DNA of 64,000 nt from Bacteroidia bacterium (GTDB lineage Bacteria; Bacteroidota; Bacteroidia; Flavobacteriales; Flavobacteriaceae). Each line of letters opens with the position of its first letter. Position 1 is the first letter of the stretch. A program made the translations under genes and the position numbers. Under the pieces are notes generated by a model. It ran no database searches, had not been told where the DNA came from, and was given only the letters and a program-made list of their open reading frames with translations. Where the stretch lies: positions 5,831-69,830 of the forward strand of contig JAUIBW010000008.1 in NCBI GenBank assembly GCA_030427585.1, written 5' to 3'. This document shows positions 6,943-55,245 of the stretch, piece after piece.

Positions 6943-7299
6943 GTGACAAAACCAAAATATGATTTAGAAAATCGAGCTTTTATCTTTGCAGCTGATGTAA
7001 GGTTCTTCTGTAAAAAATTAACTAAATCAATAATTAACATTGATGATATTAAGCAAGTAATTCGATCTTCAGGTTCCATAGGAGCTAATTATATTGAAGC
7101 CAATGAGCCGTTAGGGGTAAAAGATTTTAAAATGCGGCTAAAGATTGCCAGAAAAGAAGCTAAAGAAACTAAATACTGGCTAAAATTAATTAAAACATCT
7201 TCAGAAATTGAAGATACAGAAACAATAGATAAACTTATACGAGAAGCAGACGAATTAAATAAAATTCTATCCAGTATTATTAACAAAGCAAAAGGTTAA
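6943..7299 (+). CDS. four-helix-bundle protein (23S rRNA intervening-sequence protein family)
   Basis: YDLENRAFIFAADVRFFCKKL...SSGSIGANYIEANEP...F..RLKIARKEAKETKYWLKLI is the family signature. GTG start. Embedded between moaE and moaC. Confidence 0.75.
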   Translation: MTKPKYDLENRAFIFAADVRFFCKKLTKSIINIDDIKQVIRSSGSIGANYIEANEPLGVKDFKMRLKIARKEAKETKYWLKLIKTSSEIEDTETIDKLIREADELNKILSSIINKAKG

Positions 7300-9363: not shown

Positions 9364-9506
9364 ATGAAACGAATATTAAGAAAATTAAAAATTTCTTCAC
9401 AAAAGAAGATATTTAAATTTTCTTAATGTGAGAACGGAGTGGTTGCATACGTTCTCAATTTTATAATTAATGTATTATCAAGTAATTACTAAAATTTAAA
9501 CGTATG
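9364..9506 (+). promoter_or_regulatory. conserved structured 5' leader, copy A (shared with trxA leader 54180-54295)
   Basis: About 88 percent identity over the last 87 nt up to and including the start codon. Conserved hairpin GAGAACG-loop-CGTTCTC, with substitutions only in the loop. Confidence 0.6.
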
Positions 9507-10343
9507 AAAAATATCCTTCTTCCTACCGACTTTTCAGACAATGCCAGAAACGCCATACACTATGCTTTAGAGTTTTTTAAAAATGAACTCTGTACTTTTC
9601 ACCTCTTTAATGTACAAAAAGCATCTAAGTATACCACAGATGATCTTATGGCTGCTCCTGCTAATACTACAATCCACCAATCGGTAATTAGCGACGCCAA
9701 AAAGAAACTTAATCAAATGGTCAAAGAATTAACCGACCAATATCCAGACGAAAACTATACATTTAATACCATTACTGATTATGATGTCTTTATAGATGCT
9801 ATACGACAAGCGGTTAAATCTAAAAATATCGATCTTATCATTATGGGAACAAATGGTGCTACAGGAGCATCAGAGGTTGTGTTTGGTAGTAATACACTTA
9901 ATGTTATTCGCAAAATAGATTGTCCTATAATTGCCATTCCCCAAGGATATAAATTTAAAGATCCAAAAATCATTTTGTATGCCATTGATTACTGGGATCA
10001 TTTTAATACAGAAGGTATCGAACCTTTAATGGATACTATCATAAAACATAAATCTTCTTTGCGGATCCTTAAAATCAAAGAAGATGATACTATCACTGTA
10101 GCCGATTTTGATGACAAAAAACATATGAAGGAGTTTTTTAAAGAAATAAATCATACCTTTCATTCTATTATCAATGTACCAACTGCTTTAGCTATAAATA
10201 GTTTTGTACAAATCATGGATATTGATATGACAGCTATGTTTATTAAAAGAGAAACATTTTTAGATCGATTTTTTAAGGGATCTGAAACTTCTAAAATAAG
10301 TTATGAAACAAGAGTGCCTCTTTTGATTATGCATAGCCAATAA
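9504..10343 (+). CDS. universal stress protein, tandem Usp domains
   Basis: ILLPTDFSDNARNAIHYAL, IIMGTNGATGASEVVFGSNT, second Usp half at the C-terminus. Confidence 0.85.
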   Translation: MKNILLPTDFSDNARNAIHYALEFFKNELCTFHLFNVQKASKYTTDDLMAAPANTTIHQSVISDAKKKLNQMVKELTDQYPDENYTFNTITDYDVFIDAIRQAVKSKNIDLIIMGTNGATGASEVVFGSNTLNVIRKIDCPIIAIPQGYKFKDPKIILYAIDYWDHFNTEGIEPLMDTIIKHKSSLRILKIKEDDTITVADFDDKKHMKEFFKEINHTFHSIINVPTALAINSFVQIMDIDMTAMFIKRETFLDRFFKGSETSKISYETRVPLLIMHSQ

Positions 10344-11793: not shown

Positions 11794-12582
11794 TTGATGA
11801 AAATGAAAGCATTTAAAAACATAGGGATAGTACTTTCTGGCGGAGGGTTTAAAGGTGTTGCGCACATAGGAGTTATACACGCCCTTGAGGAAGCTGGAAT
11901 AACTGTTAATTTCATTTCGGGTGCTAGTGCAGGAGCCATAGTAGGGTCACTATATGCAGGTGGTTACTCTACAGAGGAAATAAAAAATTTCTTTGCCAAA
12001 ACCCCTTTGTTCAAATTAAATCGGTTCTCTCGAAAAAAAGCTGGTTTTTTAGATTCTGAAAAATTTTATAACGACCTGCTTACTTATTTTCCCGAAAACT
12101 CCTTTGAATCCTTACATAAACAATTATTTGTTACAGCAACCAATCTTATAGAGGGAACAACAAAAGTATTTAACACAGGAGAATTGATAAAACCTTTGTT
12201 GGCATCTGCTGCATTCCCTGGTGTTTTTACTCCGGTAACTATCAATAATGAATTATATGCAGATGGTGGAATTTTGGATAATTTCCCGGTATCACCGCTC
12301 AAAAAACATTGTGATCTAATTATTGGTGTAGATGTGTCCCCAATTAGGAAACCAAAAATTTCTGATTTTAAGCATTCATACAATGTTATGCAGCGGGCCT
12401 ACTATCTTAGAGCCATGCCAAATGCCGAAGTTAAGTTTAACCTCTGCGATATTATAATTCAACCAAAAAAATTGGTTAATCATGGTCTTTTTAGCAGTAG
12501 TAGCTTAGATAAAATATATAATCTTGGGTATCAGGAAGCAAAATTACAATTAGGATTATTCCTAAAAAATCAAGAAGGATGA
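11794..12582 (+). CDS. patatin-like phospholipase
   Basis: GIVLSGGGFKGVAHIGV (oxyanion hole), GASAGA (GxSxG), ADGG (catalytic Asp). Confidence 0.85.
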   Translation: MMKMKAFKNIGIVLSGGGFKGVAHIGVIHALEEAGITVNFISGASAGAIVGSLYAGGYSTEEIKNFFAKTPLFKLNRFSRKKAGFLDSEKFYNDLLTYFPENSFESLHKQLFVTATNLIEGTTKVFNTGELIKPLLASAAFPGVFTPVTINNELYADGGILDNFPVSPLKKHCDLIIGVDVSPIRKPKISDFKHSYNVMQRAYYLRAMPNAEVKFNLCDIIIQPKKLVNHGLFSSSSLDKIYNLGYQEAKLQLGLFLKNQEG

Positions 12583-13211
12583 TTAAAGAAATAAAAAATA
12601 AATACAGTCACCTTTTTGAAGACGAATTGCTCGAAGAAATTAATCAGGTAGGAACTTTTAAAGAAATCCCCGAAGGCTTTGAGCTTATCAAACCCGGAAG
12701 CTATATTAAGTTTATGCCTTTGATCATTAGCGGTGCTATTAAAGTGCTTAGAGGAGATCATGATGGTGACGAATTATTGCTATATTTTTTAGAACAAGGA
12801 GATACCTGTGCTATGACATTATCTTGTTGCCTGAGACATCATAAAAGTGAAATTAAAGCTATTGCTGAGACTGATACCAAATTAGTAATGATTCCTATCG
12901 AAAAAATGGAAGAATGGACATCAAAATACAAATCCTGGAGAAACTTTGTTTTTAGCAGCTATCATAAACGATTAGTAGAAACCATTGAAACCATCGACAG
13001 TATTGCTTTTCTAAATATGGATGATCGTTTATTAAAGTACCTTAAGGAAAAGACCAAAATCAGTCATACCAAAATTATCAATACTACACATCAGCAAATT
13101 GCATATGATCTTCATACGTCTAGAGTAGTAATCTCGAGATTGCTTAAAAAACTTGAAAAAAAAGGTATTGTTAAACTTAATAGAAACAATATTGAAGTAT
13201 TAGAAATGTAA
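12579..13211 (+). CDS. Crp/Fnr-family transcriptional regulator (no N-terminal Cys cluster)
   Basis: cNMP-binding-like barrel (G..I.F.PLIISGAIKV....DG.E..LYFLEQGD.CA) plus C-terminal HTH THQQIAYDLHTSRVVISRLLKKLEKKGIV. Confidence 0.85.
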   Translation: MIKEIKNKYSHLFEDELLEEINQVGTFKEIPEGFELIKPGSYIKFMPLIISGAIKVLRGDHDGDELLLYFLEQGDTCAMTLSCCLRHHKSEIKAIAETDTKLVMIPIEKMEEWTSKYKSWRNFVFSSYHKRLVETIETIDSIAFLNMDDRLLKYLKEKTKISHTKIINTTHQQIAYDLHTSRVVISRLLKKLEKKGIVKLNRNNIEVLEM

Positions 13212-18013: not shown

Positions 18014-18457
18014 TTAACTCAATAGACGTTTTTGTTTACTCTCTTTCATTATCGTTTTTATTACATCAAAAATCTTTATTTTTGTTTCTTTATAACGGTT
18101 TAGGTATTTACTTACTGCCATCGTTAACTCCCAATGATCCTCTTTATATTGTTTTTCCTCTACAGGTTGATCAACTCCATCTAACAATATGGTAAGTTCA
18201 TTATGGTGATTAATTATTTTTTTTAGTAGTGGGTCGAGACCTTTCCTGCTAAGAGATAGTTCTTGTAGTATGCTCTTACTCTTTTCAAAAATCTTTTTTG
18301 AAATTAGTTGTATTGTATGGTTTTCTATAAGTTCATCTAAAAAATGCTGTTCATCTTTGATGAATTTAAGTTCTGACACCCAGTTTAGAGAAATCTCATG
18401 TAATTCTTCTGGGCTTCGCCATTCTACATATTTTATATTGGGTTGCTTTGCTTTCAT
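18014..18457 (-). CDS. hypothetical protein, paralog of 19090-19506
   Basis: Shares the W.S.L.FI..E.HF...L, H.(N/S)EL and Y..F...K..IF blocks with the 19090 gene. Confidence 0.5.
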   Translation of the reverse strand: MKAKQPNIKYVEWRSPEELHEISLNWVSELKFIKDEQHFLDELIENHTIQLISKKIFEKSKSILQELSLSRKGLDPLLKKIINHHNELTILLDGVDQPVEEKQYKEDHWELTMAVSKYLNRYKETKIKIFDVIKTIMKESKQKRLLS

Positions 18458-19089: not shown

Positions 19090-19506
19090 TTACTTCTTGT
19101 TCTTTTTCAAAACTCCACCCGCATACAGAAAAATCTCAGATTTTAACCTGCTGAAATTTTTATAGAAGTCATCAAAAGTACATCTTACCAGAATATGATT
19201 TTTATAGTAAAAATTGTCACAAGAAATAGTATCGCATTCTAGCATACCGCCTAATTCACTTTCGTGTGTTCTTATACCTTGACTTATATTTTGTATTTCT
19301 TTCTCTATGTCTGTGATTTGTTGTTTAAACTCTTGTAACCGCTCAAAAAGATTTGGGGTGGTAGGTTCAAAAACGTAAGAATTTAATAATTGATTGATAA
19401 AATGTATTTCGCCTTCGATAAATCGAAGACTTGATTTCCATTTTAAGATATCAAAATGAATCTCTTTTAATTCTTTATCAGAGGTATTATCTGTTGTTGC
19501 CATCAT
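19090..19506 (-). CDS. hypothetical protein, paralog of 18014-18457
   Basis: The track start at 19533 would precede the predicted transcription start (TACCTTTT -7 box at about 19533-19540). The MMATTDN start at 19506 is preferred. Confidence 0.5.
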   Translation of the reverse strand: MMATTDNTSDKELKEIHFDILKWKSSLRFIEGEIHFINQLLNSYVFEPTTPNLFERLQEFKQQITDIEKEIQNISQGIRTHESELGGMLECDTISCDNFYYKNHILVRCTFDDFYKNFSRLKSEIFLYAGGVLKKNKK

Positions 19507-19563
19507 TTTTTTCAGGTTTTTAAAGCTTACCAAAAAGGTACTTAACCTCTATGAATTAAAAAG

Positions 19564-19575
19564 TGATAATTATCA
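19564..19575 (-). promoter_or_regulatory. FixK/FNR-like box TGATAATTATCA
   Basis: Perfect palindrome. On the minus strand, 23 nt later comes TACCTTTT. Confidence 0.6.
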
Positions 19576-19637: not shown

Positions 19638-21008
19638 TCAAACCATAATTTCTATGGTATCATGTAGTTTAGGAATCTGAACTTTCCATTGATATGTATC
19701 TTGTATTTTTACGCGCAATACATCTGCAGGAGTTGCTTCGCCATGAATCAAAAATACTTTTTCGGGAACATTCTTAATTTCACTCATCCAATCTAATAAT
19801 TCTTGCTGATCTGCATGGGCAGATAAACTTTCTATATTGTAAATCTTTGCTTTTACAGGATAATATTTACCAAATAGTTTGATCTCATGAGCTCCTTCTT
19901 GTAATTGTCTTCCACGAGTTCCTTCTGCCTGAAAACCCACAAGCACTACAGAGGTATTAACATTGTCTATAAGCTGTTGCAAATAAGTAAGTACTCTGCC
20001 TCCGGTAACCATTCCGCTACCCGCAATAACAATTTTGGGACGTGGATTATCGACCACTTCCCACGTTTCTTTATAAGACATCACAATATTAGTATGATTG
20101 CAAATAGCATGATATTCGTTCATAGGTAATTTATGCCAGTTAGGAAAGCTTTCAAAAACAGAAAGTACATTGTTTCCCATTGGGCTATCTACATAAACAG
20201 GTAGATTAGGAATGCGATTTTTTTGATACAGTTTCCAAAGTATATACATCAAAGTTTGTAATCGTTCTACTGCAAATGAAGGAATGATTAAAACCCCTTG
20301 GTTATATAATGTATCATTAATCAACGTGATAAGTTTTTCTTCGACATCTTCACCAGGGTGTAACTTATTGCCATAGGTACTTTCTATAAAAAGAAAATCG
20401 GCCCAATCTGGTTTTTCTGGAGCATAAAGTAATACATCATCTGTTCTTCCCAAGTCTCCAGAAAACACCAATATCTTTCCGTAAAGATGTAACTCTATAA
20501 AAGTAGATCCTATAATATGTCCGTTATATCTAAATCTAAATTGTATATCTTGAGATAACGAAACCCATGTATCTTTCTCTTCTCTTTTAAAATATTTAAT
20601 TGTTTTCTCTACATCGGTCTTGGTATAAAAAGGTAATGCGGGATCATGTTTAGAATAACCTTCTTTATTAGCTTTTTCGGCTTCTTCTTCGTGTATCTTT
20701 GCACTATCTCTTAAAATAATTTCAGTAATTGCCAATGTAGGTGCAGTAGCTACAATATCGCCTGTAAATCCTTGTTTAATTAACCTTGGTAAATAACCTG
20801 TATGATCCAAATGCCCATGTGTAAGCAGTACAATATCAATCGCAGAAGCATCGATAGGCAAATCTTGCCAATTTAATTCTCTTAATTCTTTAACTCCTTG
20901 AAACATCCCACAATCAATTAATATATTTTTTTGAGGAGTTTCGAGATAAAACTTAGATCCGGTAACCGTTCCTGCAGCTCCCAAAAAGTGAATTTTAATT
21001 GATGGCAT
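19638..21008 (-). CDS. MBL-fold beta-CASP family hydrolase (RNA-metabolising type)
   Basis: LLTHGHLDHTGYLP (HxHxDH); about 456 aa; C-terminal SAHADQQELLDW and HGE motifs typical of beta-CASP. Confidence 0.75.
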   Translation of the reverse strand: MPSIKIHFLGAAGTVTGSKFYLETPQKNILIDCGMFQGVKELRELNWQDLPIDASAIDIVLLTHGHLDHTGYLPRLIKQGFTGDIVATAPTLAITEIILRDSAKIHEEEAEKANKEGYSKHDPALPFYTKTDVEKTIKYFKREEKDTWVSLSQDIQFRFRYNGHIIGSTFIELHLYGKILVFSGDLGRTDDVLLYAPEKPDWADFLFIESTYGNKLHPGEDVEEKLITLINDTLYNQGVLIIPSFAVERLQTLMYILWKLYQKNRIPNLPVYVDSPMGNNVLSVFESFPNWHKLPMNEYHAICNHTNIVMSYKETWEVVDNPRPKIVIAGSGMVTGGRVLTYLQQLIDNVNTSVVLVGFQAEGTRGRQLQEGAHEIKLFGKYYPVKAKIYNIESLSAHADQQELLDWMSEIKNVPEKVFLIHGEATPADVLRVKIQDTYQWKVQIPKLHDTIEIMV

Positions 21009-21019
21009 AAGACTTTATT

Positions 21020-21856
21020 TTATACTGTACATAGCATTTTTATTTCATTCACAATTTTTTGTTTTCGCTGTTCAGAAATGCCTAAATGATCCAGAAAAAA
21101 AATCTGTTCTATCAATTGTTTTGCTAAAACAATGTTTCGGCTTAATAAAAATTGTTTTTCACGATTTGTTAAAAGCGTAGAAACCGTTATTGGATATAAC
21201 CCTAAACGATCAATTCTATCTTTAAGGTTATTTTCTATAGGATAATCCCAACTTAATAAATACAAACCTACACACTCGCCATATTGAATTGCGTCCTTTG
21301 TAAAACGTGTATTGGTCACAACCCAACCATGATTAGGCACTATTTCTCCATTATTTTTATGGTGCGTTTCAATATCCTTAAATCGAGAATGGATATACAA
21401 AGGGACTTTTACATTACAATTGCGTCCTTCTTCGCTATGAAACTTACATTCTATAACCAGATAGTCCCTATTTTTCCTGGCTACTACATCTACTTCATGA
21501 GAGACACACATACCCTGAATGATTTGCCCAACTTCTACCTGATAACCAGAATACTGTAATATAGATGCAATAAAACGCTCGAAAGGAAAACCTGTTGGTC
21601 CCAATTCATAAATTGCTTTTTTTAGTTTGTATTTTGAAGCAAAAACCGATTTCTTCTTTTTTAGTAATGCAAAAGCTCGATTATAAATTTCTCTGGTAGA
21701 AATTCCTTGATATAATTCATCTCTAACGACTCCCAGAATATGTTCTATTGCTTTATCATCTGCACCACTTCGCTTTAAGGAATTGCGAAGTTTTCGGAGT
21801 GAAAATTTAACTTTTTCTCCAGAAGATTTTATAACATCAAAATTCTGATTTTGCAT
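21020..21856 (-). CDS. ATP-cone domain fused to a Mrr/restriction-endonuclease-like domain
   Basis: N-terminal VIKSSGEKVKFSLRKLRNSLKRSG...REIYNRAF (ATP-cone-like). C-terminal HEVDVVARKNRDYLVIECKFH (D...E.K nuclease core). Confidence 0.6.
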   Translation of the reverse strand: MQNQNFDVIKSSGEKVKFSLRKLRNSLKRSGADDKAIEHILGVVRDELYQGISTREIYNRAFALLKKKKSVFASKYKLKKAIYELGPTGFPFERFIASILQYSGYQVEVGQIIQGMCVSHEVDVVARKNRDYLVIECKFHSEEGRNCNVKVPLYIHSRFKDIETHHKNNGEIVPNHGWVVTNTRFTKDAIQYGECVGLYLLSWDYPIENNLKDRIDRLGLYPITVSTLLTNREKQFLLSRNIVLAKQLIEQIFFLDHLGISEQRKQKIVNEIKMLCTV

Positions 21857-21910
21857 TAAAACTATTTAAATATTAAATACAACTAACTAAATATCTTAAT
21901 GAATACGCTG

Positions 21911-22318
21911 TTAATCTTTTTTGAAATATGATCTTATCAAAGCTTTAGTTTGATTATCGGTCATACTATCTGCTTTAAGCACATCTTTTACCTTTTTACC
22001 GATATCTCTATAGTTTGTTGTTAATTCTTTATTAAATTTTTCTCCCGTCTCTGCAGGCCCATAAATCACAATCCTATCTGCATCTTTTATAAGAGGAATA
22101 ATCTTTTTAAAATAGGCTTTAAATTGATGTTTCTCTCGTTCTAGATATTTACTATCCTGAACCACATCCTGCGGCCCGCCTTTAAGTCGTGTTCCAGAAC
22201 CGCCGTGAATACGAAAGTTTTCAATTTCTGATGGTATGGTAGTCATATCCTCGCTATCTTCTTTAACAGAAATGATATGAGCTTTTTCTTTATCTATCCA
22301 AATTCCTACAGGTTTCAT
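21911..22318 (-). CDS. host-attachment / bacterial eRF1-like (baeRF) family protein, tentative
   Basis: 135 aa with GIWIDKEKAHII... start, a Gly-rich loop HGGSGTRLKGGPQD, then RIVIYGPAETGEKF...KADSMTDNQ, which resembles the eRF1/Pelota C-terminal-like fold families. This comparison is from memory only. Confidence 0.35.
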   Translation of the reverse strand: MKPVGIWIDKEKAHIISVKEDSEDMTTIPSEIENFRIHGGSGTRLKGGPQDVVQDSKYLEREKHQFKAYFKKIIPLIKDADRIVIYGPAETGEKFNKELTTNYRDIGKKVKDVLKADSMTDNQTKALIRSYFKKD

Positions 22319-22391
22319 CTGTTTATTTTTTATGGTTAAAGAGTATTAACAGCAGTTATAAGTGTAGACTGCCTAATTGTAGTATATCTGC

Positions 22392-23246
22392 TTAATTTGC
22401 TAAATCATGTAAGGCCAATACCGGTACTTGAGAATGATGTCCTAAATTTTTTACCATTGGCCTTGAAAATATACTTCCAAAAAAACTGTGTTTTCTATTA
22501 ATAAAAGTAATCATATCACTCCCCCGGCTTTCTACAAAACTGCTAAGCCCTCCTTTTATATCTATATTATGCAGTGTATGAAAAGTGTATTTTATACCAT
22601 CCAAGTATTCTACAAGTAATCCCTTGTTGTTTTCTTGTTCTTCATCCAGATCATCATCATTTGTAACATGAAGAATTCTTATTTCAGCATTTGTGATTCG
22701 TGCTATTTCAATTAGATATTGAAGCTCTCTGCGCTTAATTTGAGTTCTATAATCTGTTGGAAATACAATTTCTTTTGGTTCTTTATAGTTAGTGTTTTCT
22801 GGTATTGCCATAACAGGGCAATTTCTTACTTTTTCCATCACCAAAACTGTATTACTACCGTAAATGAGATCTCCAGCATTAGTCGTTCCTTTGGTTCCCA
22901 TAACGATCATTTCGATATCTTTTTTCTCTACGGTATCTTTGATCGCACTCAATACATTATTGAATTGAGATATCATAAAAAATTTATGATTAGGGTTATC
23001 ATCTCTAAAACTTAACCTTTCTTCGATTTTACTTAAGCCCTTTTCTGATTTCTCTTTGGCCTCTTCATAAAGTCGTTCTCCTGGTTCGGGAATCATCATG
23101 CTTTCTAATGCATAACCTGTTGCATTAAACACATTAAGTACGTAAAAATCACATGTTTCATTTTTATATAACTCTATAGCATATAGTATAGCATTCCACG
23201 CGTTTTTTGAAAAATCCGTGGGCAACAAAATCTTTTTTTTCATCAT
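22392..23246 (-). CDS. universal stress protein, tandem Usp domains
   Basis: ILLPTDFSKNAWNAILYAIELY, VMGTKGTTNAGDLIYGSNT. Confidence 0.85.
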   Translation of the reverse strand: MMKKKILLPTDFSKNAWNAILYAIELYKNETCDFYVLNVFNATGYALESMMIPEPGERLYEEAKEKSEKGLSKIEERLSFRDDNPNHKFFMISQFNNVLSAIKDTVEKKDIEMIVMGTKGTTNAGDLIYGSNTVLVMEKVRNCPVMAIPENTNYKEPKEIVFPTDYRTQIKRRELQYLIEIARITNAEIRILHVTNDDDLDEEQENNKGLLVEYLDGIKYTFHTLHNIDIKGGLSSFVESRGSDMITFINRKHSFFGSIFSRPMVKNLGHHSQVPVLALHDLAN

Positions 23247-23300
23247 TTAGGTCTTTAAGATTAGTCTTATAAATGTATGGATCTAGCCTTGTAAAAACTA

Positions 23301-23312
23301 TGATAATTATCA
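23301..23312 (-). promoter_or_regulatory. FixK/FNR-like box TGATAATTATCA
   Basis: Perfect palindrome overlapping the stop codon of the upstream usp. On the minus strand, 23 nt later comes TACATTTA. Confidence 0.6.
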
Positions 23313-24158
23313 GCTTAACTCAGGAATGACCAAGAAAGGAATGGTTGTGCGAAATCCTATTTTTTTAATAGTAGGTTCATGTGTGATACTTTCTATAAGA
23401 CTATGTTTATATTGTGACATACATAGTATATCAATATCCATATTATCAATAAACTCATTGATAAGTTTAGCTTTTTGAGTAAATCGAGGAATCCAATGGA
23501 TACAGTAATTAAAGTCTTTGAAATTTTCTTTAAGATGCTTAAGATTATGTTCTTGTATTTCGTCTAATTTCTCTTCTTCATGAATATGCATCACCCTAAT
23601 GTTTGAAGAAAATAGAGTAACAATTTCTAGAAGAGGTTTTAAAGACTCTATATTATAAAGACATTTAAAATCTGTTGCAAAAGCAATTTCTGTAGGTTTT
23701 TTAAAATCAAATTCATCTGGTACTGCCAGTATCGTGCAATCCTTAATATTATTAATGACTTTAACCGTATTACTTCCTATAAGAACTTCTTTGGCACCAC
23801 TGGCTCCCTTAGTTCCCATAACAACAAGATCGATATTTTTACTTTTTATGGTTTTGTTAATGGTATCGGTAAGTTTTTTGGAAACAGAAATAGTTTCAAA
23901 CGTATGCTTATAATCCTCTGTATCTCTAACTATAGAATGGAGCGTTTCGGTAAGCTTTTCCTGCGACTCATTACTTAATTCCTGATATAATAAATCTCCT
24001 TTGGCAATATTAATTCTACTTGTTAAAACCGGAGTATCTACATTAAAAGTATTTAGAATATAAAATTGACACTCCTGATCTTGAAATAATCTGGTCGCAT
24101 AAAAAAGTGCGCCATAAGCGTTATTAGAAAAATCTGTGGGAACAAGTATCCTTTTCAT
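23310..24158 (-). CDS. universal stress protein, tandem Usp domains
   Basis: ILVPTDFSNNAYGALFYATRLF, VMGTKGASGAKEVLIGSNT. Confidence 0.85.
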   Translation of the reverse strand: MKRILVPTDFSNNAYGALFYATRLFQDQECQFYILNTFNVDTPVLTSRINIAKGDLLYQELSNESQEKLTETLHSIVRDTEDYKHTFETISVSKKLTDTINKTIKSKNIDLVVMGTKGASGAKEVLIGSNTVKVINNIKDCTILAVPDEFDFKKPTEIAFATDFKCLYNIESLKPLLEIVTLFSSNIRVMHIHEEEKLDEIQEHNLKHLKENFKDFNYCIHWIPRFTQKAKLINEFIDNMDIDILCMSQYKHSLIESITHEPTIKKIGFRTTIPFLVIPELS

Positions 24159-24216
24159 CTCTTTTCAGTTTTACAAATTATATCATAAAATTAGCTTTAT
24201 AATAACAGGAATACTA

Positions 24217-24228
24217 TGACAAATCTCA
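24217..24228 (-). promoter_or_regulatory. FixK/FNR-like box TGACAAATCTCA (one half degenerate)
   Basis: On the minus strand, 23 nt later comes TAATTTTA. Confidence 0.5.
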
Positions 24229-24243
24229 TGTCTACAAAAACTC

Positions 24244-25098
24244 TCAAATACCAATATCGGCAGGGATTATCAAAAAAGGAATTATAGTATTAAATGTCAT
24301 TTTTTTGATGATGGGTTCTTTTATTATTCTTTCTACAAAACTATGCTCATAATTAATCATTACCAGAATATCGATTTCTAGTTCTTCTATAAATTCCTGA
24401 ATAGCATGTTCTACTGTAGAGAAATCAGACATGACATGAAAATCATATTTTACATGTTTAAAATAATATTCTAATGAGCTAGAATTATAATGTTGTAAAG
24501 GATTTAATTTGGGTTTATCATATATATGAATCATCCTAACCGTAGCATTCTGACTTTTAGCCAATTCTAGTATAGGAGCGATCTCTGCCTTATGATACAT
24601 TCGCTCAAAATCTGTTGCAAAAGCTATTGCCGAAATTTCTTTAAAATATGAATCATCAGGAATAATAAGGATAGGACAATGTGATACATTATTGACTACT
24701 TTTTGTGTAGTACTTCCTAAAAAAAGATTTTTACTTCCAGTTGTTCCTTTGGTACCAATGATAATCATATCAAAAGAGTTATGTTCTGAAAGCTTGTCTA
24801 TATTTTGAACCAAGGATCCCTTTTTACTTATTGTTTTAAAGATATGATGCAGTCCTGGTGTAGAATTATGGATATCTTCTAAAATCATTTTCAGTCCTTG
24901 CTCAGATTCCATTTTAATCGCTTCATAAAGATGACCTATACGCTGTGAACTCACCACACTTATAAGTTGTACTGGTTCAAGGTCATACGTGTTTAACAAA
25001 TAAAACTCACAAGGAACATTTCTATATAATTCTATAGCATACAATATAGTATTCCAAGCATTATCAGAAAAATCTGTAGGGATTAGAATTTGTTTCAT
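24244..25098 (-). CDS. universal stress protein, tandem Usp domains
   Basis: ILIPTDFSDNAWNTILYAIELY, IIGTKGTTGSKNLFLGSTT. Confidence 0.85.
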   Translation of the reverse strand: MKQILIPTDFSDNAWNTILYAIELYRNVPCEFYLLNTYDLEPVQLISVVSSQRIGHLYEAIKMESEQGLKMILEDIHNSTPGLHHIFKTISKKGSLVQNIDKLSEHNSFDMIIIGTKGTTGSKNLFLGSTTQKVVNNVSHCPILIIPDDSYFKEISAIAFATDFERMYHKAEIAPILELAKSQNATVRMIHIYDKPKLNPLQHYNSSSLEYYFKHVKYDFHVMSDFSTVEHAIQEFIEELEIDILVMINYEHSFVERIIKEPIIKKMTFNTIIPFLIIPADIGI

Positions 25099-25138
25099 TT
25101 GTCTATATTTATCAGACTAGCGAGGTCTAGGATTAATA

Positions 25139-25990
25139 TCAAGCGATCCTCTCTATAGAAGGGATTACCAAAAAAGGAATATTGGTATGATAGGCTACCT
25201 GGTTAATTACTGGTTTGAATAAAAGATTTTCGAAGAAAGAATGTTTATTGTGAATCATAACCAATAAATCGATTTTGTGCTTTTTCTGAAAATCTTCTAC
25301 AGCCTCTAGTACATCCATTCCTTCGGCAATGTGAAAAATATGAGCATTATTTTTAAAATACTTATCCAATTCCTCCTTAATCTTTTGCTGTTCAGCATCT
25401 AAAGCAACTCCATAATAAGCATTTAAGATATTAAGTCTACAAATATATTTATCACAAATTTCTTTTATTAAAGGTAAATATCTATTATCCATACTAAGGT
25501 TATAATCTGTTGGAAATAAAACATCTTTAGGTTTTTCAAATTCAAAACCAGAAGGAACTGCAATAACAGGACAGTTTACTTTTTTTATCGTATACATCGT
25601 ATGTGTCCCGATAAAGACTTCTTTGGCGCCTGTAGCTCCTTTGGTACCCATTATTATTAAATCAATATTGTATTTTTCGACAACTGACTTAATTTCTCCT
25701 ATTAGAGTATTAAAAACTGATAATCTAACAAAACTATGTTTCGGGTTATTAAACTCTTCTTTGATTTTTTCTTCTGTTCGTTCGACATCACGTTTAGAAT
25801 TTATCATTGCAATATCTTCCATGCCATACGGTGCAGGGTTCTCGATAAGATACCCTGTGTGATATGATACTGGCGTAAATGTATTGAGCAAATAAAAAGT
25901 AGTCTCTTCCTCTCTAAACAAATTTAAAGCATATCTAATCGCATTAAATGCATTATCAGAGAAATCGGTAGGTAATAAAATTCGTTTCAT
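25139..25990 (-). CDS. universal stress protein, tandem Usp domains
   Basis: ILLPTDFSDNAFNAIRYALNLF, IMGTKGATGAKEVFIGTHT. Confidence 0.85.
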   Translation of the reverse strand: MKRILLPTDFSDNAFNAIRYALNLFREEETTFYLLNTFTPVSYHTGYLIENPAPYGMEDIAMINSKRDVERTEEKIKEEFNNPKHSFVRLSVFNTLIGEIKSVVEKYNIDLIIMGTKGATGAKEVFIGTHTMYTIKKVNCPVIAVPSGFEFEKPKDVLFPTDYNLSMDNRYLPLIKEICDKYICRLNILNAYYGVALDAEQQKIKEELDKYFKNNAHIFHIAEGMDVLEAVEDFQKKHKIDLLVMIHNKHSFFENLLFKPVINQVAYHTNIPFLVIPSIERIA

Positions 25991-26002
25991 CTCTATATAA
26001 TT

Positions 26003-26851
26003 TTAATATCGTTGTAAGTTTTGCATCACTAAAAAAGGAATCTTAATATGTAGTCCTATTTTATCAATTGTAGATCGATCTAAAACATTTTCTAAATAAG
26101 AACGCCTCGAATTTACCATTACCAAAAAATCTATTTCATTACGCTCTGTAAACTGGTTTATAGCATAGGTAAGGTCTTCTGCTGTCTCTTGATGAAATAT
26201 TAATTTAGCATTAGGTAATGATTTTTTTAAAAAATGCTTATTATCTTCTTGCCGGATAGAAAGCTTGTCAAAGTTCGAGATATATAAAAAATTAATAGTA
26301 GACCTAAAGCTTTTAGTTAATGTACTAAACAATTTTAGTTCTCTTCGCTTAAATGGTAATTGATAATTTGTAGGAAATAGAATATTTTTTGGCGAATTGT
26401 AACTACAATTACTTGGAATTACTAATACAGGGCATTTTACATACTTAAGAACCTGTAAAGTATTGCTCCCAAAAGTAAGCTTTTGGTCATTAGTTTCTCC
26501 TTTTGTTCCCATAATCAGAATATCTATATTTTCCTTATCTACCAGATCATTAGCCTCATCGGTTAGACTCCCAAACATGGATAGTAATTTATACTCATGT
26601 CGAGGATTAGGTGAAATATTCTTTATTTCTAAAAGTACTTTCTCTAATGCCATATTAGAGTTTTTATATACTCTTTCTTTTAGTGTATCAAAAATTTCGC
26701 GAGAAACTACGGTGCTATGATCGTATACCTCATCGGCATAAGCATGTAATATAAAAAAATCACACCGTTCATATTTAAAAAGTTCAACAGCATATCGTAA
26801 AGCATTCATCGCATTTTCTGAAAAATCTGTGGGAATCAATATTTTTCTCAT
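26003..26851 (-). CDS. universal stress protein, tandem Usp domains
   Basis: ILIPTDFSENAMNALRYAVELF, IMGTKGETNDQKLTFGSNT. Confidence 0.85.
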   Translation of the reverse strand: MRKILIPTDFSENAMNALRYAVELFKYERCDFFILHAYADEVYDHSTVVSREIFDTLKERVYKNSNMALEKVLLEIKNISPNPRHEYKLLSMFGSLTDEANDLVDKENIDILIMGTKGETNDQKLTFGSNTLQVLKYVKCPVLVIPSNCSYNSPKNILFPTNYQLPFKRRELKLFSTLTKSFRSTINFLYISNFDKLSIRQEDNKHFLKKSLPNAKLIFHQETAEDLTYAINQFTERNEIDFLVMVNSRRSYLENVLDRSTIDKIGLHIKIPFLVMQNLQRY

Positions 26852-36864: not shown

Positions 36865-36894
36865 TAAAATTGCGTGAGGGATTGAAACGGCATC

Positions 36895-36942
36895 CTTTTC
36901 TGTTACTCTGATTTTGTCGAAGAATAAGAAGTAACAGAAAAG
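36895..36942 (+). other. 12-bp stem hairpin inside the FeS-nrfD intergenic spacer
   Basis: CTTTTCTGTTAC-24 nt-GTAACAGAAAAG. Confidence 0.5.
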
Positions 36943-36988
36943 ATATAGTGGAAAGCCCGACCCCGTGGGCACGCCAAAAAAACAACAC

Positions 36989-48092: not shown

Positions 48093-48929
48093 TCACTCAT
48101 GCAACACCAAAAAGGGAATAGTAATGTGATAACTTATTTTTTCGACTGTAGGATGAAATAAAATACGCTGGAAGAAATTAAGGTTTTTGGCAACCATAGT
48201 AATCATATCAATATCCCTGCTTTCAACAAAACATTGTATAGCTTCTTCGATATTGGGATTAGAAAGGAAGTGAAAACTATGCTCTATTGTGTCAATAGAA
48301 TCATCTAAAAAATCTTTATTTTTTCTTTGTCTATCGCTTAATTCTTGTTCTTTTTTAGCAACATGCAAAACCCGTAAAGCAGCTTCATTTAAAGTAAGAG
48401 TATCCATGATTGTATTCAATACTCTGCTTTTATATAACATATTATAATCTGTGGGAAATGCAATTTCTTTAGGTTTGGTATAGATGGCTTTTTCGGGTAT
48501 TACCAAAACAGGGCACTTAACTTTTGTGATCACATCTCCTGTATTGCTACCTATGGTTTTTTCCTTAATCCCCGAAGCTCCTTTGGTTCCCATAACAATA
48601 AAATCAATATTCTTTTCCTTAACCTGTTTTCTAATCGCATCTACAAAAAAGATATATTCATTAATTTTGAAGAAGCTATGTTTTGTATTTAAAGGTAGCT
48701 TCTCTATTCTTTTAAGCAATAATTGCATTTGCTCTGTATCGCTTTGGGTACTTTTTTCTAAGACTGTTTCTTTTGAACCATAAAATGAATCTCTTCCTAT
48801 CATTTCTTCAAAGGGAGAGACATGTAACAAATAAAAGTTACATTTCACCCTTTTAAAAAATGACAATGCATATGCAACAGCATTCCACGAATTTTCAGAA
48901 AAATCTGTAGGGATCAGGATGTTTTTCAT
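48093..48929 (-). CDS. universal stress protein, tandem Usp domains
   Basis: ILIPTDFSENSWNAVAYALSFF, VMGTKGASGIKEKTIGSNT. Confidence 0.85.
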   Translation of the reverse strand: MKNILIPTDFSENSWNAVAYALSFFKRVKCNFYLLHVSPFEEMIGRDSFYGSKETVLEKSTQSDTEQMQLLLKRIEKLPLNTKHSFFKINEYIFFVDAIRKQVKEKNIDFIVMGTKGASGIKEKTIGSNTGDVITKVKCPVLVIPEKAIYTKPKEIAFPTDYNMLYKSRVLNTIMDTLTLNEAALRVLHVAKKEQELSDRQRKNKDFLDDSIDTIEHSFHFLSNPNIEEAIQCFVESRDIDMITMVAKNLNFFQRILFHPTVEKISYHITIPFLVLHE

Positions 48930-49013: not shown

Positions 49014-50078
49014 TTATTCTACCAACTGAAGACCAGGCAAATCCAAAATTTTTATATTACGGCCTTCGATTTCAATCAGTCCATCTTTTTTAAAACTAGA
49101 TAGTGTACGTATCAGGCTTTCTGTTGCGATCCCAGCGACACTTGCCAAATCATTTCTGGATATTTTTATGCTATCCATAGGTTTTTTGTCTAATATGTTA
49201 GCAAATTGAAGTATGGTTTGAGCTGTTTTTTTACGTACCGAACTATAGGCCATTTGTAATAATTGCTCTTTAATTTCAGAAAGGTTACCAGCAAGCAGTT
49301 CCATTAATTCGAGGGAAATATTCTTACTTTTTTCTAGAATCTCTTTCAAATTATTTTTTGATATTCCTGCTAATTCTAAGTCTTCAACTGCTGTTGCCGA
49401 TTCTAGATATGGTGTATTATCTATAAACGAAGTAAACCCCAGGAAATCATCGGTTTTGTATAAATTGGTAATCAGTTCTTTACCATTCTCATCCATTTTA
49501 TGACTTTTCACAACTCCTTTTAGGATAAGATATATGTTATTAGAATGCTCTCCTTCTTCATAGATTACTTCTCCCTTTTTAAATTTGGAAATCACACCAT
49601 GATCATCAAAAAAATTCTTAAGCTCATGTAAATTCCTAAGTCCACTATCTTCAGAAGTGTTTATTGCTGAAGCAGAAAATTCTTGATCTTTAACAACTTT
49701 AGAGAGTAAGGCTGCTTTTGCAAGACGACTTTCGATTGCACTCAATAATTCATCTTCTTCAAAAGGTTTGGTTAGATAATCATCAGCTCCCAAGTCCATT
49801 CCTTTTCGAATCTCTTTATGTTCCGTTTTTGCAGATAAAAATATAAAAGGGATATGGTTGGTCGCCGTATCGCAGGATAGTGCTTCCAGTACTCCATATC
49901 CATCAACCTCGGGCATCATAATATCACAAACAATAATATCTGGTTTTTCTTCTTTGGCTTTAACGATGCCTACTTTTCCGTTTGGAGATGTGATTACTTT
50001 ATAATCTGAAAGCTCTAATAGTTCTGCAGTATTTTCTCTAAGTGCTGTGTCATCTTCAATTAAAAGAATAGTTTTCAT
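49014..50078 (-). CDS. hybrid response regulator: REC domain fused to Crp/Fnr-type cNMP-binding-like and HTH domains
   Basis: REC: ILLIEDD, IIVCDIMMPEVDG, FLSAKT. C-terminal: effector barrel (GEVIYEEGEHSNNIYLILKGVVK) and HTH ISRNDLASVAGIATESLIRTLSSFKKDGLI. Confidence 0.85.
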   Translation of the reverse strand: MKTILLIEDDTALRENTAELLELSDYKVITSPNGKVGIVKAKEEKPDIIVCDIMMPEVDGYGVLEALSCDTATNHIPFIFLSAKTEHKEIRKGMDLGADDYLTKPFEEDELLSAIESRLAKAALLSKVVKDQEFSASAINTSEDSGLRNLHELKNFFDDHGVISKFKKGEVIYEEGEHSNNIYLILKGVVKSHKMDENGKELITNLYKTDDFLGFTSFIDNTPYLESATAVEDLELAGISKNNLKEILEKSKNISLELMELLAGNLSEIKEQLLQMAYSSVRKKTAQTILQFANILDKKPMDSIKISRNDLASVAGIATESLIRTLSSFKKDGLIEIEGRNIKILDLPGLQLVE

Positions 50079-51310
50079 GATTCGTGGGTATTGGTTGTAG
50101 GTATAGTAACTGTAAATGTAGATCCTTGATTTTCCTTACTTGTAAAAGTAATACTCCCACCTAGGTTTTCCAAATGGGTTTTCACAATATTCAACCCAAT
50201 ACCTGTTCCTTGATCTAATAAGGCATTTTCTGCCCTAAAATATCGTTTAAAAATAAAATCTTGTTCTTTTTTAGGAATACCAATACCTTGATCAATAATC
50301 TTAAATGTAAGGATATTATCTTCGAAACATACCTGCAAATCAATTACTGTATGTTCTCCAGAATATTTGATGGCATTATTAATTAAATTTGTAAGTACGA
50401 GTTCTAAAATCTTTTCATCAAATTCTATAACATAATCATCGATATCTTTGGGGTAATTTATTCTTTGCCCGTCTTTTAGTAACATATTAGCATCATACAC
50501 CACTTCATTAACAACCTTACTAAGTGGAAACTGGCTATATTTATAAGTTACTTTTCCTGTTTCGAGACGTTCGATAGATAAAAAATCATTTAAGATATTA
50601 TCCAGATATTTCACTTTGTTTTTTATAGTATCGAGATGTTTTTCTCTTTTTCCTTGTTGTTCTGTTTTGGTATATTTTCCTGCAAGAGTGGCTGAAGTAA
50701 GAATACCACTTAATGGTGTTTTAAACTCATGAGAGACAAGTGAAAGGAATTTTGTTTTTAGCTCACTTAAATCTCTTTCTTTTTTTAAAGATTCTTTAGT
50801 TTGAGCTTCGGCTTCCATACGAAGTTTTACTTCTTCTTTTAATTCTTGTATGGTATGATGCAGTTCTTCTGTACGTTCTTCTATTTTTTGCTCTAGTTTA
50901 GCATTTAAATCTTGTATTTGCTGTTCTTGTTGTTTTCGAAGTGTAATATCGATAATAAGGGCCATTACATAATTACTACCATAAATTGTAAATGGGTTTA
51001 AGCCTGCTTCTACCGGAAACACAGAGCCGTCTTTTCGTATCCCAAAAAGATCTCGTCCTGCTCCCATATGTCGTTTTTCACTATACGCTACAAAACCATC
51101 AAAATGCTTTTTGTGACCATGATGGTATTTTTTTGGTATCAACGTATTAAGATGTTTTCCTACTAACTCATTTGTATCATAGCCAAAAATAGTATTAGCA
51201 GATCCATTAGTTGCTACTATTGTTTGTTTTTCGTTCACTACAATGATACCTTCTGAAATGGCCTCAGAAAGTAATTTGAAAATGTTATTGTCTTTTTCGA
51301 AAACTTTCAT
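50075..51310 (-). CDS. PAS-domain sensor histidine kinase (FixL-like PAS, tentative)
   Basis: PAS, coiled coil, HisKA (LVSHEFKTPLS) and HATPase (NLINNAIKY, DQGIGI, GTGIGL). ATGA overlap with the regulator gene. Confidence 0.85.
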   Translation of the reverse strand: MKVFEKDNNIFKLLSEAISEGIIVVNEKQTIVATNGSANTIFGYDTNELVGKHLNTLIPKKYHHGHKKHFDGFVAYSEKRHMGAGRDLFGIRKDGSVFPVEAGLNPFTIYGSNYVMALIIDITLRKQQEQQIQDLNAKLEQKIEERTEELHHTIQELKEEVKLRMEAEAQTKESLKKERDLSELKTKFLSLVSHEFKTPLSGILTSATLAGKYTKTEQQGKREKHLDTIKNKVKYLDNILNDFLSIERLETGKVTYKYSQFPLSKVVNEVVYDANMLLKDGQRINYPKDIDDYVIEFDEKILELVLTNLINNAIKYSGEHTVIDLQVCFEDNILTFKIIDQGIGIPKKEQDFIFKRYFRAENALLDQGTGIGLNIVKTHLENLGGSITFTSKENQGSTFTVTIPTTNTHES

Positions 51311-51417: not shown

Positions 51418-51825
51418 ATGAATACGACTCAAAACATAGGGATTATATTTTATCAAAATCTAGGCAAGCTATTCTATGCAATTGCTGCGTCGGATAAGAT
51501 AGTTCGTAAATCAGAATATGATTCATTACGAAAAATCGTGAAAAAAGAATGGGCAAAAGTAGATGAAATTGAAGATGAGTTTGGAGCCGATGCTTCTTTT
51601 CAAATTGAGATTGTTTTTGACTGGCTTGATTATGAAGAGTTGAGCGCAGAAGAATGTTTTATTCAATTCGAAACCTTTTATAAAGAACATAAATCTCATT
51701 TTACAGAACGATTAAAGCAGTTGATCTGGATCACAGCCAATACTATTGCAGGTGCATTTTCTGGTAAAAACAAATCCGAATTAATGATGCTCGGGCGATT
51801 GAAATTAATTTTTAAAAAACAGTAA
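51418..51825 (+). CDS. TerB/DjlA-N-like domain protein (tentative)
   Basis: 135 aa helical protein with LFYAIAASDK.V...E; precedes cbpA. Confidence 0.35.
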   Translation: MNTTQNIGIIFYQNLGKLFYAIAASDKIVRKSEYDSLRKIVKKEWAKVDEIEDEFGADASFQIEIVFDWLDYEELSAEECFIQFETFYKEHKSHFTERLKQLIWITANTIAGAFSGKNKSELMMLGRLKLIFKKQ

Positions 51826-51842
51826 CTAATTTTGGTTAGCAT

Positions 51843-52727: not shown

Positions 52728-52737
52728 ATGTATTATA

Positions 52738-53031
52738 ATGACTAAAGGACATCTTATACCAGTATTAGAATTTTGTAAACGCCATGAGATAGAATTCTCT
52801 TTCATAAACTCATTACATGAGTTTGGATTAATTGAAATTATTACGATCCGGAAAACTGCATTTTTAAACTCTGATGAATTGCCCAGGCTCGAACAAATTA
52901 TAGTATTCAATAAAGAATTAGAAATTAATCTTGAAGGTGTTGAAGTCATCATGCGTTTGCTAGAACGAGTTCATCAAATTCAAAATGAAATGAATATGCT
53001 TAAAAATAAATTAGGGCTATACGAAAATTAG
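52738..53031 (+). CDS. CbpM-like chaperone modulator (MerR-like fold)
   Basis: 97 aa immediately after cbpA. Start moved from the track start 52636 (which overlaps cbpA) to the ATG at 52738. Confidence 0.55.
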   Translation: MTKGHLIPVLEFCKRHEIEFSFINSLHEFGLIEIITIRKTAFLNSDELPRLEQIIVFNKELEINLEGVEVIMRLLERVHQIQNEMNMLKNKLGLYEN

Positions 53032-54119: not shown

Positions 54120-54179
54120 TTTCTTTAATTAAAAAATTTCTCGGCTCATTATTATAACTTAGCAATTAAAAGATAATAG

Positions 54180-54592: not shown

Positions 54593-54594
54593 CC

Positions 54595-55239: not shown

Positions 55240-55245
55240 AATAAG

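Follow-up and report, generated by a model that had tools for sequence, protein, structure and literature searches.

A one-domain eRF1-like protein, a universal stress protein and a predicted nuclease pair behind a candidate low-oxygen promoter in Flavobacteriaceae

A Four-Gene Block Lies Behind a Palindromic Box

The DNA examined here is a stretch of 64,000 nucleotides (nt) with 33% G+C from a Bacteroidia bacterium of the Flavobacteriaceae (contig JAUIBW010000008.1, positions 5,831 to 69,830), called the window throughout this report. The best matches of its proteins point to an Aquimarina species near A. atlantica and A. megaterium. Within it, a block of four minus-strand genes follows a palindromic sequence with FNR/CRP-type half-sites, which we refer to as the box. 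In order, these genes encode a tandem-type universal stress protein (Usp), a protein of 135 amino acids (aa) that we name mini-eRF1, a nuclease of the AF1548 family that carries an ATP-cone domain, and a nuclease of the beta-CASP type (Table 1). The open reading frame listing places gaps of 73, 54 and 11 nt between them. An initial annotation of this DNA had described the same four reading frames on one strand, the same gaps and the same position of the box, and all of these particulars hold. In addition, a motif search of the 284-aa Usp finds the ATP-binding motif G117-x2-G-x9-G-S.

The arrangement upstream of the first gene resembles an activated promoter. The first three minus-strand bases of the box (TGATAATTATCA) form the stop codon of another usp gene, which precedes the operon, and the box ends 54 nt before the ATG of the operon at position 23246. 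Exactly 23 nt downstream of the box is the sequence TACATTTA, which matches TAnnTTT(G), the established -7 promoter element of the Bacteroidetes. If transcription begins a few bases past this element, the center of the box would fall near -41.5, the position expected for a class II activator. A second perfect copy of the box, absent from the initial annotation, marks the downstream end of the operon.

Table 1. Features of the four-gene block and of its candidate regulators (coordinates are those of the window)
Feature	Position	Strand	Basis and details
Box TGATAATTATCA, palindromic operator with FNR/CRP-type half-sites TGAT-N4-ATCA	23301-23312	-	Exact match; putative activator site
TACATTTA, Bacteroidetes-type -7 promoter element (consensus TAnnTTTG)	23270-23277	-	Exactly 23 nt downstream of the box
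usp, gene for a tandem-type universal stress protein, at the start of the operon	22392-23246	-	284 aa; Pfam Usp PF00582, E 1.4e-23
mini-eRF1, stand-alone eRF1 middle (RNase H-fold) domain protein	21911-22318	-	135 aa, isoelectric point 9.1; AlphaFold2 and Foldseek
AF1548-family ATP-cone nuclease	21020-21856	-	278 aa; Pfam ATP-cone 8-67, Mrr_cat 89-194, AF1548-like_C 221-273
beta-CASP metallo-beta-lactamase nuclease, TTHA0252/Cas14 type	19638-21008	-	456 aa; Pfam Lactamase_B, Beta-Casp E 8e-32, RMMBL E 1.6e-17
Second perfect box copy, promoter of the next gene (147-aa protein)	19564-19575	-	Just past the beta-CASP stop codon
PAS histidine kinase	50075-51310	-	Pfam; box in front at 51347
Hybrid response regulator with cNMP-binding and Crp-type HTH domains	49014-50078	-	Pfam
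Crp-like protein of 210 aa, alternative candidate regulator	12579-13211		Pfam

The 135-aa Protein Is Modeled as a Stand-Alone eRF1 Middle Domain

The AlphaFold2 model of mini-eRF1 (pLDDT 72.8) contains three strands, a disordered loop at residues 34-54, a long helix at residues 51-77 and a beta-alpha-beta-alpha unit, and a single domain occupies the whole 135-aa length. When this model was compared with the PDB using Foldseek, the top 32 matches were all to eRF1, aRF1, Pelota or Balon proteins (including Rv2629 and Msmeg1130), each with a probability of 1.0, with E values from 2e-6 to 1e-3 and query TM scores of 0.6-0.68. The Balon-type entries among them are 8rd8_B, 8v9j_z and 8v9k_z. Other RNase H-like folds, including YqgF and Ppx/GppA, are listed below these 32.

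Sequence comparisons give weaker signals in the same direction. No Pfam or NCBIfam family matches mini-eRF1 at threshold. Below threshold, eRF1_2 is reached by 3 of 39 family members (best E 9.5e-5) and the baeRF families 5, 10, 2 and 12 are reached at E values of 0.002-0.05, while weak PDB sequence matches of the family comprise three Pelota chains and one aRF1 chain. Plain sequence searches of mini-eRF1 against the PDB returned noise (for example, Cas9 and bS21m) besides the weak Pelota matches. Because the fold matches are to eRF1-type proteins and the weak sequence signals agree with them, the predicted structure identifies the 135-aa protein as a stand-alone eRF1 middle domain. The initial annotation had likened the protein to both host-attachment and eRF1-like families and had proposed a structural comparison of positions 21911-22318. 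That comparison supports the second likeness, at the level of the fold, and the first finds no support in Pfam. Some sources use a host-attachment name for this protein, but PF10116 is absent from the families listed at E <= 10 for the 39 members or at E <= 0.01 for 10 distant ones. Matches to Arb2, LmuC and LmuA in searches with the protein were sub-threshold and were dismissed.

The loop HGGSGTRLKGGPQD directly precedes the long helix. Among 39 homologues with 62-85% identity, the residues H-G-G-S-G-T-x-x-K-G-G-P-Q-D-V-V, G87-P88-A89, D117 and N122-Q123 are invariant. The G47-G48-P49-Q50 segment, which is invariant in these 39 flavobacterial sequences and abuts the helix at 51-77, reads as GGQ with an inserted Pro, and it occupies what we take to be the position of GGQ in the eRF1 topology (PDB 1DT9). 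Judged by this topology, the two positions are probably equivalent.

The family extends well beyond the window. At the 50% cluster level and E <= 1e-3 it has 1858 representatives, and among the 150 best listed most are about 125-146 aa long and nearly all stand alone. A metagenome scan with the single mini-eRF1 protein returned only 7 loci, and two distant family members lie on contigs shorter than 2 kb, which say little about their surroundings. One metagenomic protein of 246 aa (P0388, locus L083) has a mini-eRF1 domain at residues 3-131 followed by a Ribosomal_S30AE (HPF/RaiA) domain at 154-242. This fusion or adjacency fits the linkage of baeRF-1 and HPF genes reported previously (PMC6514570).

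In two loci of another clade (L094 and L095, 6850-8420), a gene for aminoacyl-tRNA editing (YbaK-like, PF04073) is followed after about 650 nt by mini-eRF1, with a small lipoprotein-like gene between them. The YbaK-like gene is a second translation-related neighbor of mini-eRF1.

Usp and Mini-eRF1 Form a Near-Constant Pair, and the Nuclease Genes an Optional One

Relatives of the 135-aa protein were found in 410 species in a scan of one genome per species, and the best 80 loci, nearly all from Flavobacteriaceae, were analyzed for gene order. In the counts that follow, 77 loci are those with an adjacent usp gene, 78 are those that could be assessed for the nuclease pair, and 51 are those with nuclease junctions. 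The orthologous usp gene is located directly upstream of mini-eRF1 in 77 of the 80 loci, and its identity is 50-99%, compared to about 30-38% for paralogues.

The two nuclease genes behave as a unit. Both are present in 50 of 78 loci and both are absent from the other 28, with no locus in which they are split, and they are always adjacent, with gaps of 10-36 nt across the 51 loci aligned. The initial annotation had recommended a survey of gene neighborhoods across Bacteroidota on the view that mini-eRF1 and the two nucleases form a set. The survey establishes the pairing of usp with mini-eRF1 and does not sustain the triad as an obligate set, since the nuclease pair is missing as a unit in 28 of the 78 assessable loci and occurs without mini-eRF1 in Mesonia and Ulvibacter.

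A different and independent order of the same families is present on two marine contigs (L089 and L093). There, an ATP-cone nuclease gene is followed by genes for a beta-CASP enzyme, a thymidine/AMP-phosphorylase-like protein, a saccharopine-dehydrogenase-like protein, a protein resembling phosphoribosyl pyrophosphate (PRPP) synthase and, finally, mini-eRF1. All are on one strand with gaps of no more than about 20 nt. The mini-eRF1 proteins of this order belong to a distant clade (about 42% identity) whose loop lacks GGPQ. Overall, the three families are associated more often than chance would suggest, and none of them needs the others.

In A. megaterium (L002:8360-8520), both nuclease genes and the downstream box have been removed by a clean deletion, whereas mini-eRF1 remains 94% identical. 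It begins at the stop codon of mini-eRF1 and reaches into the promoter of the gene that follows, such that mini-eRF1 is now four codons longer and its end is fused to the -7 region of that gene.

The Positions of the Box Suggest a Single Operon

The placement of the box among related loci is informative with regard to where transcription units begin and end. A box is present upstream of the usp gene next to mini-eRF1 in 59 of 77 loci. The full composite of box and -7 element occurs in 52, and in 51 of these the spacing is exactly 23 nt. Between usp and mini-eRF1 a box occurs in a single locus of 77, and none is found between mini-eRF1 and the ATP-cone gene or between the ATP-cone and beta-CASP genes (0 of 51 loci in each case). 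A box follows the beta-CASP gene in 27 of 51 related loci. Within the window itself, a pattern scan finds no box inside the four-gene block and a scan of the minus strand of the block finds no terminator-like site; generic scans for sigma-70 promoters and terminators matched shuffled expectation and were given no weight. On the strength of the box positions across related loci, we consider the block to be a single unit, driven by the box and ending behind the beta-CASP gene, and these same data uphold the earlier proposal of one promoter. Internal constitutive promoters in the AT-rich spacers are possible.

An Old Nuclease Architecture Is Encoded Beside a Beta-CASP Enzyme

The third protein of the block combines an ATP-cone with a PD-(D/E)xK nuclease core (E121, D123, E136 and K138), followed by a C-terminal helical domain. 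It matches AF1548 of Archaeoglobus fulgidus (PDB 1Y88) with an E value of 1e-25 over residues 94-274, and the predicted structure (pLDDT 91.5) matches the same entry with a Foldseek E value of 1.5e-14 and a TMt of 0.80. After 1Y88, the structural neighbors are the sensor-PD-(D/E)xK nucleases Cdn1, Can2 and Card1, and then the ATP-cones of NrdR and ribonucleotide reductase (RNR); modification-dependent restriction enzymes are also among them. All three domains are present in the order typical of the AF1548 family, together with the conserved D-ExK triad, which was predicted to be catalytic in AF1548 (PMC1821046). Across 32 bacterial and archaeal sequences, K10, G13 and K22 and also E121, D123, E136, C137, K138 and H140 are invariant or nearly so. 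The presence of the ATP-cone suggests that ATP or dATP gates the nuclease.

The ATP-cone is likewise part of the full-length relatives of AF1548 in Archaeoglobi, Aenigmarchaeota, Nanoarchaeota and Hadesarchaea, and thus the architecture is old rather than a local fusion. The initial annotation was correct in recognizing an ATP-cone and an Mrr-like D-EXK core. However, the fusion that it singled out is the ordinary domain layout of AF1548 proteins across Archaea, and the archaeal homologues of identical architecture rule out a novel combination. The window differs from the archaeal cases in another respect. The archaeal genes examined have no beta-CASP neighbor, whereas the gene described here is locked to a beta-CASP gene under a predicted low-oxygen promoter. 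An ancient pairing of the two enzymes was considered and then dropped, as three archaeal loci do not have it.

The nuclease also shares with Can2, Card1 and Cdn1, and with NrdR, the joining of a nucleotide-binding sensor to an effector, and the fold matches cover both halves of the protein. The sensor in this instance is an ATP-cone rather than a CARF domain and no cyclic-oligoadenylate system is located nearby, such that the resemblance is one of analogy and not of membership.

A set of Cys and His residues (C117, C137, H140 and C195) located beside the ExK motif is near-invariant across the bacterial and archaeal AF1548 family. These residues may form a metal or redox site.

The beta-CASP enzyme retains metallo-beta-lactamase motifs 1-4 and beta-CASP motifs A, B and C (D32, H64xH66xD68H69, H164, D185, E209, H398 and H422). 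Its Beta-Casp and RMMBL domains and these intact motifs support its earlier description as a metallo-beta-lactamase hydrolase of the RNA-metabolizing type. The closest PDB matches are Cas14 and TTHA0252 (E about 1e-70), with which it shares the layout of metallo-beta-lactamase, beta-CASP and RMMBL domains with all motifs. TTHA0252 of Thermus thermophilus degrades RNA as a 5'-3' exo-RNase and influences mRNA levels globally, and no partner nuclease was reported for it (PMC4229858). In contrast to Cas14, the enzyme has no extra C-terminal region. An identity as Cas14 or as another CRISPR component was rejected: the NCBIfam score is 394 bits against a cut-off of 800, with the match confined to profile positions 1-426 of 612. 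No cas genes are found among the window reading frames scanned against Pfam, and the PADLOC defense models give only marginal matches to the four proteins (E 1e-4 to 4e-3, at most 20 bits). Full-text searches found no paper that brings together ATP-cone, CASP and nuclease.

The Box Defines a Putative Low-Oxygen Regulon

A relaxed form of the box (TGAYN4RTCA) occurs 18 times in the window compared to 4.9 +/- 2.3 expected, and 15 of the 18 sites are intergenic. The composite pattern, consisting of a box, a spacer of 22-24 nt and TAnnTTT, occurs 14 times, where Markov simulations predict 0.12 (maximum 2), and at 12 of these 14 sites the spacer is exactly 23 nt. The genes downstream of composite sites, or of the box alone in two cases, include ccoNO (39256), ccoI (26993), a usp-hemN unit (48929) and hsp20 (18984), along with five further Usp genes and a fatty-acid hydroxylase gene. 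Also preceded by a composite or box are the operon encoding the PAS histidine kinase and the response regulator with cNMP-binding and HTH_Crp domains (51310-49014), a 135-aa gene of no assigned family that stands before a dnaJ-like/MerR_2 pair, and moeB, as well as an alginate-export-like gene for an outer-membrane protein upstream of a nap-like reductase cluster.

In Flavobacterium psychrophilum, the genes for cbb3 oxidase and haem synthesis are strongly induced by oxygen limitation (PMC9723704). Given this response and the gene content of the targets, it is reasonable to call the element a low-oxygen box, and by analogy the box-driven genes are probably controlled by oxygen. The low-oxygen setting proposed in the initial annotation is supported by a fixed spacing of box and -7 element before ccoNO, hemN-usp, ccoI, hsp20 and other genes. 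The sites resemble FNR/CRP class II promoters in their inverted TGAT-N4-ATCA half-sites and in their fixed distance to the core promoter, and the targets resemble FNR regulons in including a cbb3 oxidase, hemN and a nap-like reductase. No FNR of the classical kind, with its N-terminal Cys cluster, is encoded in the window.

The most likely candidate for the activator of the box is the hybrid system at 49014-51310, in which a PAS kinase is paired with the response regulator bearing Crp-type domains. The recognition helix of this response regulator has an E...R pattern, which we take to be FNR-like. In Ulvibacter, the same pair of kinase and hybrid regulator also adjoins the Usp array.

The Usp genes themselves are numerous. 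The window has eight paralogous genes of the tandem type (9504-10343, 22392-26851, 48093-48929 and 56005-56844) whose products are 22-39% identical, and five of them form one head-to-tail array. Six of the eight have their own box, the exceptions being the genes at 25139 and 24244. Such an abundance of Usp genes recalls the composition of the mycobacterial DosR regulon.

Several other box-associated genes are worthy of description. Two paralogous 147-aa proteins without a Pfam family (19090-19533 and 18014-18457) flank hsp20 and are kept in most related loci. For the first of these, the reading frame as listed begins with a TTG at 19533 that falls within the -7 element, and the true start is probably an ATG near 19506. 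The box-driven genes at 51418-53031 encode a 135-aa protein unrelated to mini-eRF1, along with DnaJ-like and MerR_2 proteins that together resemble a CbpA/CbpM pair. At 53232-55944, a box is followed by genes for a 295-aa protein without a Pfam family, a DeoC aldolase and a purine/uridine phosphorylase. The occurrence of nucleoside catabolism genes in this low-oxygen island fits with the nucleotide-salvage genes that stand beside the nuclease pair in L089 and L093.

Mini-eRF1 Compared to Balon and the baeRF Families

Balon of P. urativorans is a three-domain, eRF1-like ribosome hibernation factor that binds the A site with EF-Tu and inhibits translation; its mycobacterial homologues (Rv2629) are induced by hypoxia, and genes for Hsp20, RaiA and RtcB are common neighbors of Balon genes (PMC10901736). 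Mini-eRF1 has in common with Balon, Rv2629 and Msmeg1130 the fold of the eRF1 middle domain and, by prediction, a stress or hypoxia regulon setting beside Hsp20 and Usp-type genes. The three-domain architecture is not shared. Balon has about 360 aa and uses an N domain (with an HP motif) and a C domain (for EF-Tu binding), whereas mini-eRF1 consists of the middle domain only. Conversely, Balon carries a lasso loop in place of GGQ (PMC10901736), whereas mini-eRF1 keeps the GGQ-like GGPQ loop. The initial annotation knew of no characterized function for this gene set. This remains accurate for the set, but not for the relatives of mini-eRF1, because Balon and Rv2629 are established as a hypoxia-induced type of hibernation factor (PMC10901736).

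The baeRF-1 families offer a second comparison. Three of these families are reduced to a stand-alone RNase H-fold domain and were proposed to be noncatalytic blockers of the A site, and a linkage between baeRF-1 and HPF genes was reported (PMC6514570). Like the reduced families, mini-eRF1 is a bacterial member of the eRF1 superfamily reduced to the core domain, with positively charged residues after the loop, and one member of its family is fused or adjacent to HPF. Unlike them, it matches no Pfam baeRF model at threshold (best E about 0.002-0.05), and whereas the reduced baeRF-1 families usually lack the Gln, the flavobacterial mini-eRF1 subfamily keeps it invariant. The main text of that report (PMC6514570) makes no mention of linkage to Usp, ATP-cone nuclease or beta-CASP genes.

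Possible Roles of the Operon Under Oxygen Limitation

We give about even odds to the proposal that the operon encodes distinct modules under common control that shut down translation in hypoxia, by analogy with Balon/Rv2629 in mycobacteria. In this proposal, a Crp/Fnr-type activator would bind TGAT-N4-ATCA, 23 nt upstream of the -7 element, when oxygen is limiting, and this one signal would drive usp, mini-eRF1 and the genes for the ATP-cone nuclease and the beta-CASP enzyme along with those for the cbb3 oxidase, hemN, hsp20 and the seven other Usp proteins. The flexible, Gly-rich GGPQ loop of mini-eRF1 would most likely reach the peptidyl-transferase center or the A site, where this basic protein might silence, protect or clear ribosomes as translation stops, in the manner of a Balon without its decoding and EF-Tu-binding domains. 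In the other module, the ATP-cone on the AF1548-type endonuclease would read the levels of ATP or dATP, and the PD-(D/E)xK endonuclease together with the TTHA0252-type 5'-3' exo/endo-RNase would most likely degrade RNA as the energy charge falls, with the products of decay feeding nucleotide salvage. The ATP-binding Usp may modulate either module.

A tighter relationship among the proteins can also be imagined, wherein the nucleases cut ribosome-bound mRNA or rRNA and mini-eRF1 releases the ribosome or the peptidyl-tRNA, as Pelota, Dom34 or Vms1 would, with all three acting as obligate partners. The co-occurrence of the three genes in 50 of 78 flavobacterial loci would be consistent with such a machine, as would their recurrence in another order in a distant clade (L089 and L093), the invariant Gly-Gly-Pro-Gln at the position of GGQ in the flavobacterial subfamily, and the presence of Pelota structures among the fold and profile matches. 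We nevertheless judge it unlikely, given that 28 of the 78 loci keep mini-eRF1 without both nucleases (including the clean deletion in A. megaterium), that the nucleases of Mesonia and Ulvibacter occur without mini-eRF1, and that the Gln is variable across the wider family. Just as doubtful is a broader version in which mini-eRF1 would be a new trans-acting factor, namely a free GGQ-like domain that enters the peptidyl-transferase center with no decoding or GTPase-binding domain, and would combine with the nucleases in an energy-sensing "cleave, release and recycle" pathway for anoxia that dismantles ribosome-mRNA complexes and passes their nucleotides to salvage. The genes could, on the other hand, be merely co-regulated stress genes whose nuclease pair serves DNA repair or processing in anoxia and has nothing to do with translation. 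Most PD-(D/E)xK and Mrr/Hjc-like folds are DNases, the ATP-cone is familiar above all from the control of dNTP supply in NrdR and RNR, and in many genomes the pair is uncoupled from mini-eRF1. Yet the beta-CASP enzyme has an RMMBL "RNA specificity" domain, its closest characterized relatives (TTHA0252, aCPSF1 and Cas14) act on RNA, and the second gene order ties the pair to nucleoside and PRPP metabolism and to mini-eRF1. Action on DNA is therefore, in our estimation, quite improbable.

Two further alternatives bear on single parts of the operon. It is very unlikely that the 135-aa protein is an RNase H-fold enzyme or binding protein with a nonribosomal target, whose resemblance to eRF1 reflects a shared fold. 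Its best-conserved residues (W7, D9, S30, G87, P88, D117 and Q123) lie outside the loop, YqgF and Ppx/GppA are among the lower Foldseek matches, and no Pfam eRF1 or baeRF model is reached at threshold, but all 32 of the top structural matches are eRF1, Pelota or Balon proteins with a probability of 1.0, the independent weak matches are to eRF1_2, four baeRF families and three Pelota chains, and a fusion or adjacency to HPF occurs in one member. As for the nuclease pair, its presence or absence as a unit even between close species, its sensor and PD-(D/E)xK architecture reminiscent of Can2 and Card1, and the kinship of the beta-CASP enzyme with Cas14 of type VII CRISPR might suggest a mobile defense cassette, that is, a nucleotide-sensing abortive-infection system inserted here by chance. 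This too is very unlikely. PADLOC yields no significant match, the pair has a fixed syntenic position in many genera, among them Aquimarina, Tenacibaculum, Polaribacter, Winogradskyella and Psychroserpens, with protein identities (about 65-72%) that are unusually high for defense genes, neither a separate box or promoter nor neighboring mobile-element genes are present, and the difference in A. megaterium is a simple deletion. The synteny, the conservation and the lack of PADLOC matches led us to reject the defense-island explanation.

Translational shutdown by separate, co-regulated modules is the reading that we prefer, and a number of observations weigh against it or against parts of it. 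Mini-eRF1 is without the N and C domains with which Balon and eRF1 attach to the ribosome and to EF-Tu. The invariance of GGPQ is limited to the flavobacterial subfamily; among 131 diverse members the loop Gln is merely the majority residue and is often replaced by Met, His or Thr, and the near-invariant positions of these 131 are W7, G5, D9, A13, S30, G87, P88, D117 and Q123. The HPF fusion comes from a single 941-bp JGI contig and is possibly a merger of two adjacent genes during gene calling. With regard to the nucleases, PD-(D/E)xK enzymes usually cut DNA, and an RNA substrate for the ATP-cone nuclease is a prediction. The presence of the pair is mixed within Aquimarina, Psychroserpens, Winogradskyella and Tenacibaculum, which indicates repeated losses or gains, and Mesonia and Ulvibacter have the order box, usp, ATP-cone nuclease and beta-CASP gene with no mini-eRF1. 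At the three archaeal loci examined, no beta-CASP gene neighbors the AF1548-family gene. Finally, the window encodes two Crp-type proteins, so the activator named above is only a candidate.

Relation to Known Systems

All components of the operon belong to known superfamilies, and the idea that hypoxia induces an eRF1-like ribosome factor is already published. We found no published account of a one-domain mini-eRF1 family within a defined low-oxygen regulon, of the near-constant pairing of mini-eRF1 and Usp genes, of the recurrent occurrence of mini-eRF1 beside an AF1548-type ATP-cone nuclease that is itself tied to a beta-CASP RNase, or of the architecture of box and -7 element.

That relatives of eRF1 serve as bacterial hibernation factors was shown recently for Balon in 2024 (PMC10901736), and Bacteroidetes and similar phyla may have unappreciated hibernation strategies (preprint 10.1101/2025.11.04.686544). 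A widespread one-domain eRF1 family, with 1858 representative clusters and occurrences in 410 species genomes, is an obvious candidate for such a strategy, and it provides a test of whether a middle domain by itself is enough for contact with the ribosome. Through the nuclease pair, a role might be found for AF1548, a protein with no assigned function whose structure dates from 2004, and the pair may be the first case of an ATP-cone that controls a nuclease. In addition, the spacing of box and -7 element supplies a ready map of the regulon for oxygen limitation in marine Flavobacteriaceae.

Additional Features of the Window

Two features elsewhere in the window are recorded here. A Flavo-1 RNA (Rfam RF01705, 57.8 bits) is located on the plus strand at 36867-36966, between the genes for an Fe-S subunit and an NrfD-like protein of the nap-like reductase cluster. 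At 6943-7299, a gene for a member of the "23S rRNA intervening sequence protein" family (PF05635) lies within a molybdenum-cofactor biosynthesis operon.

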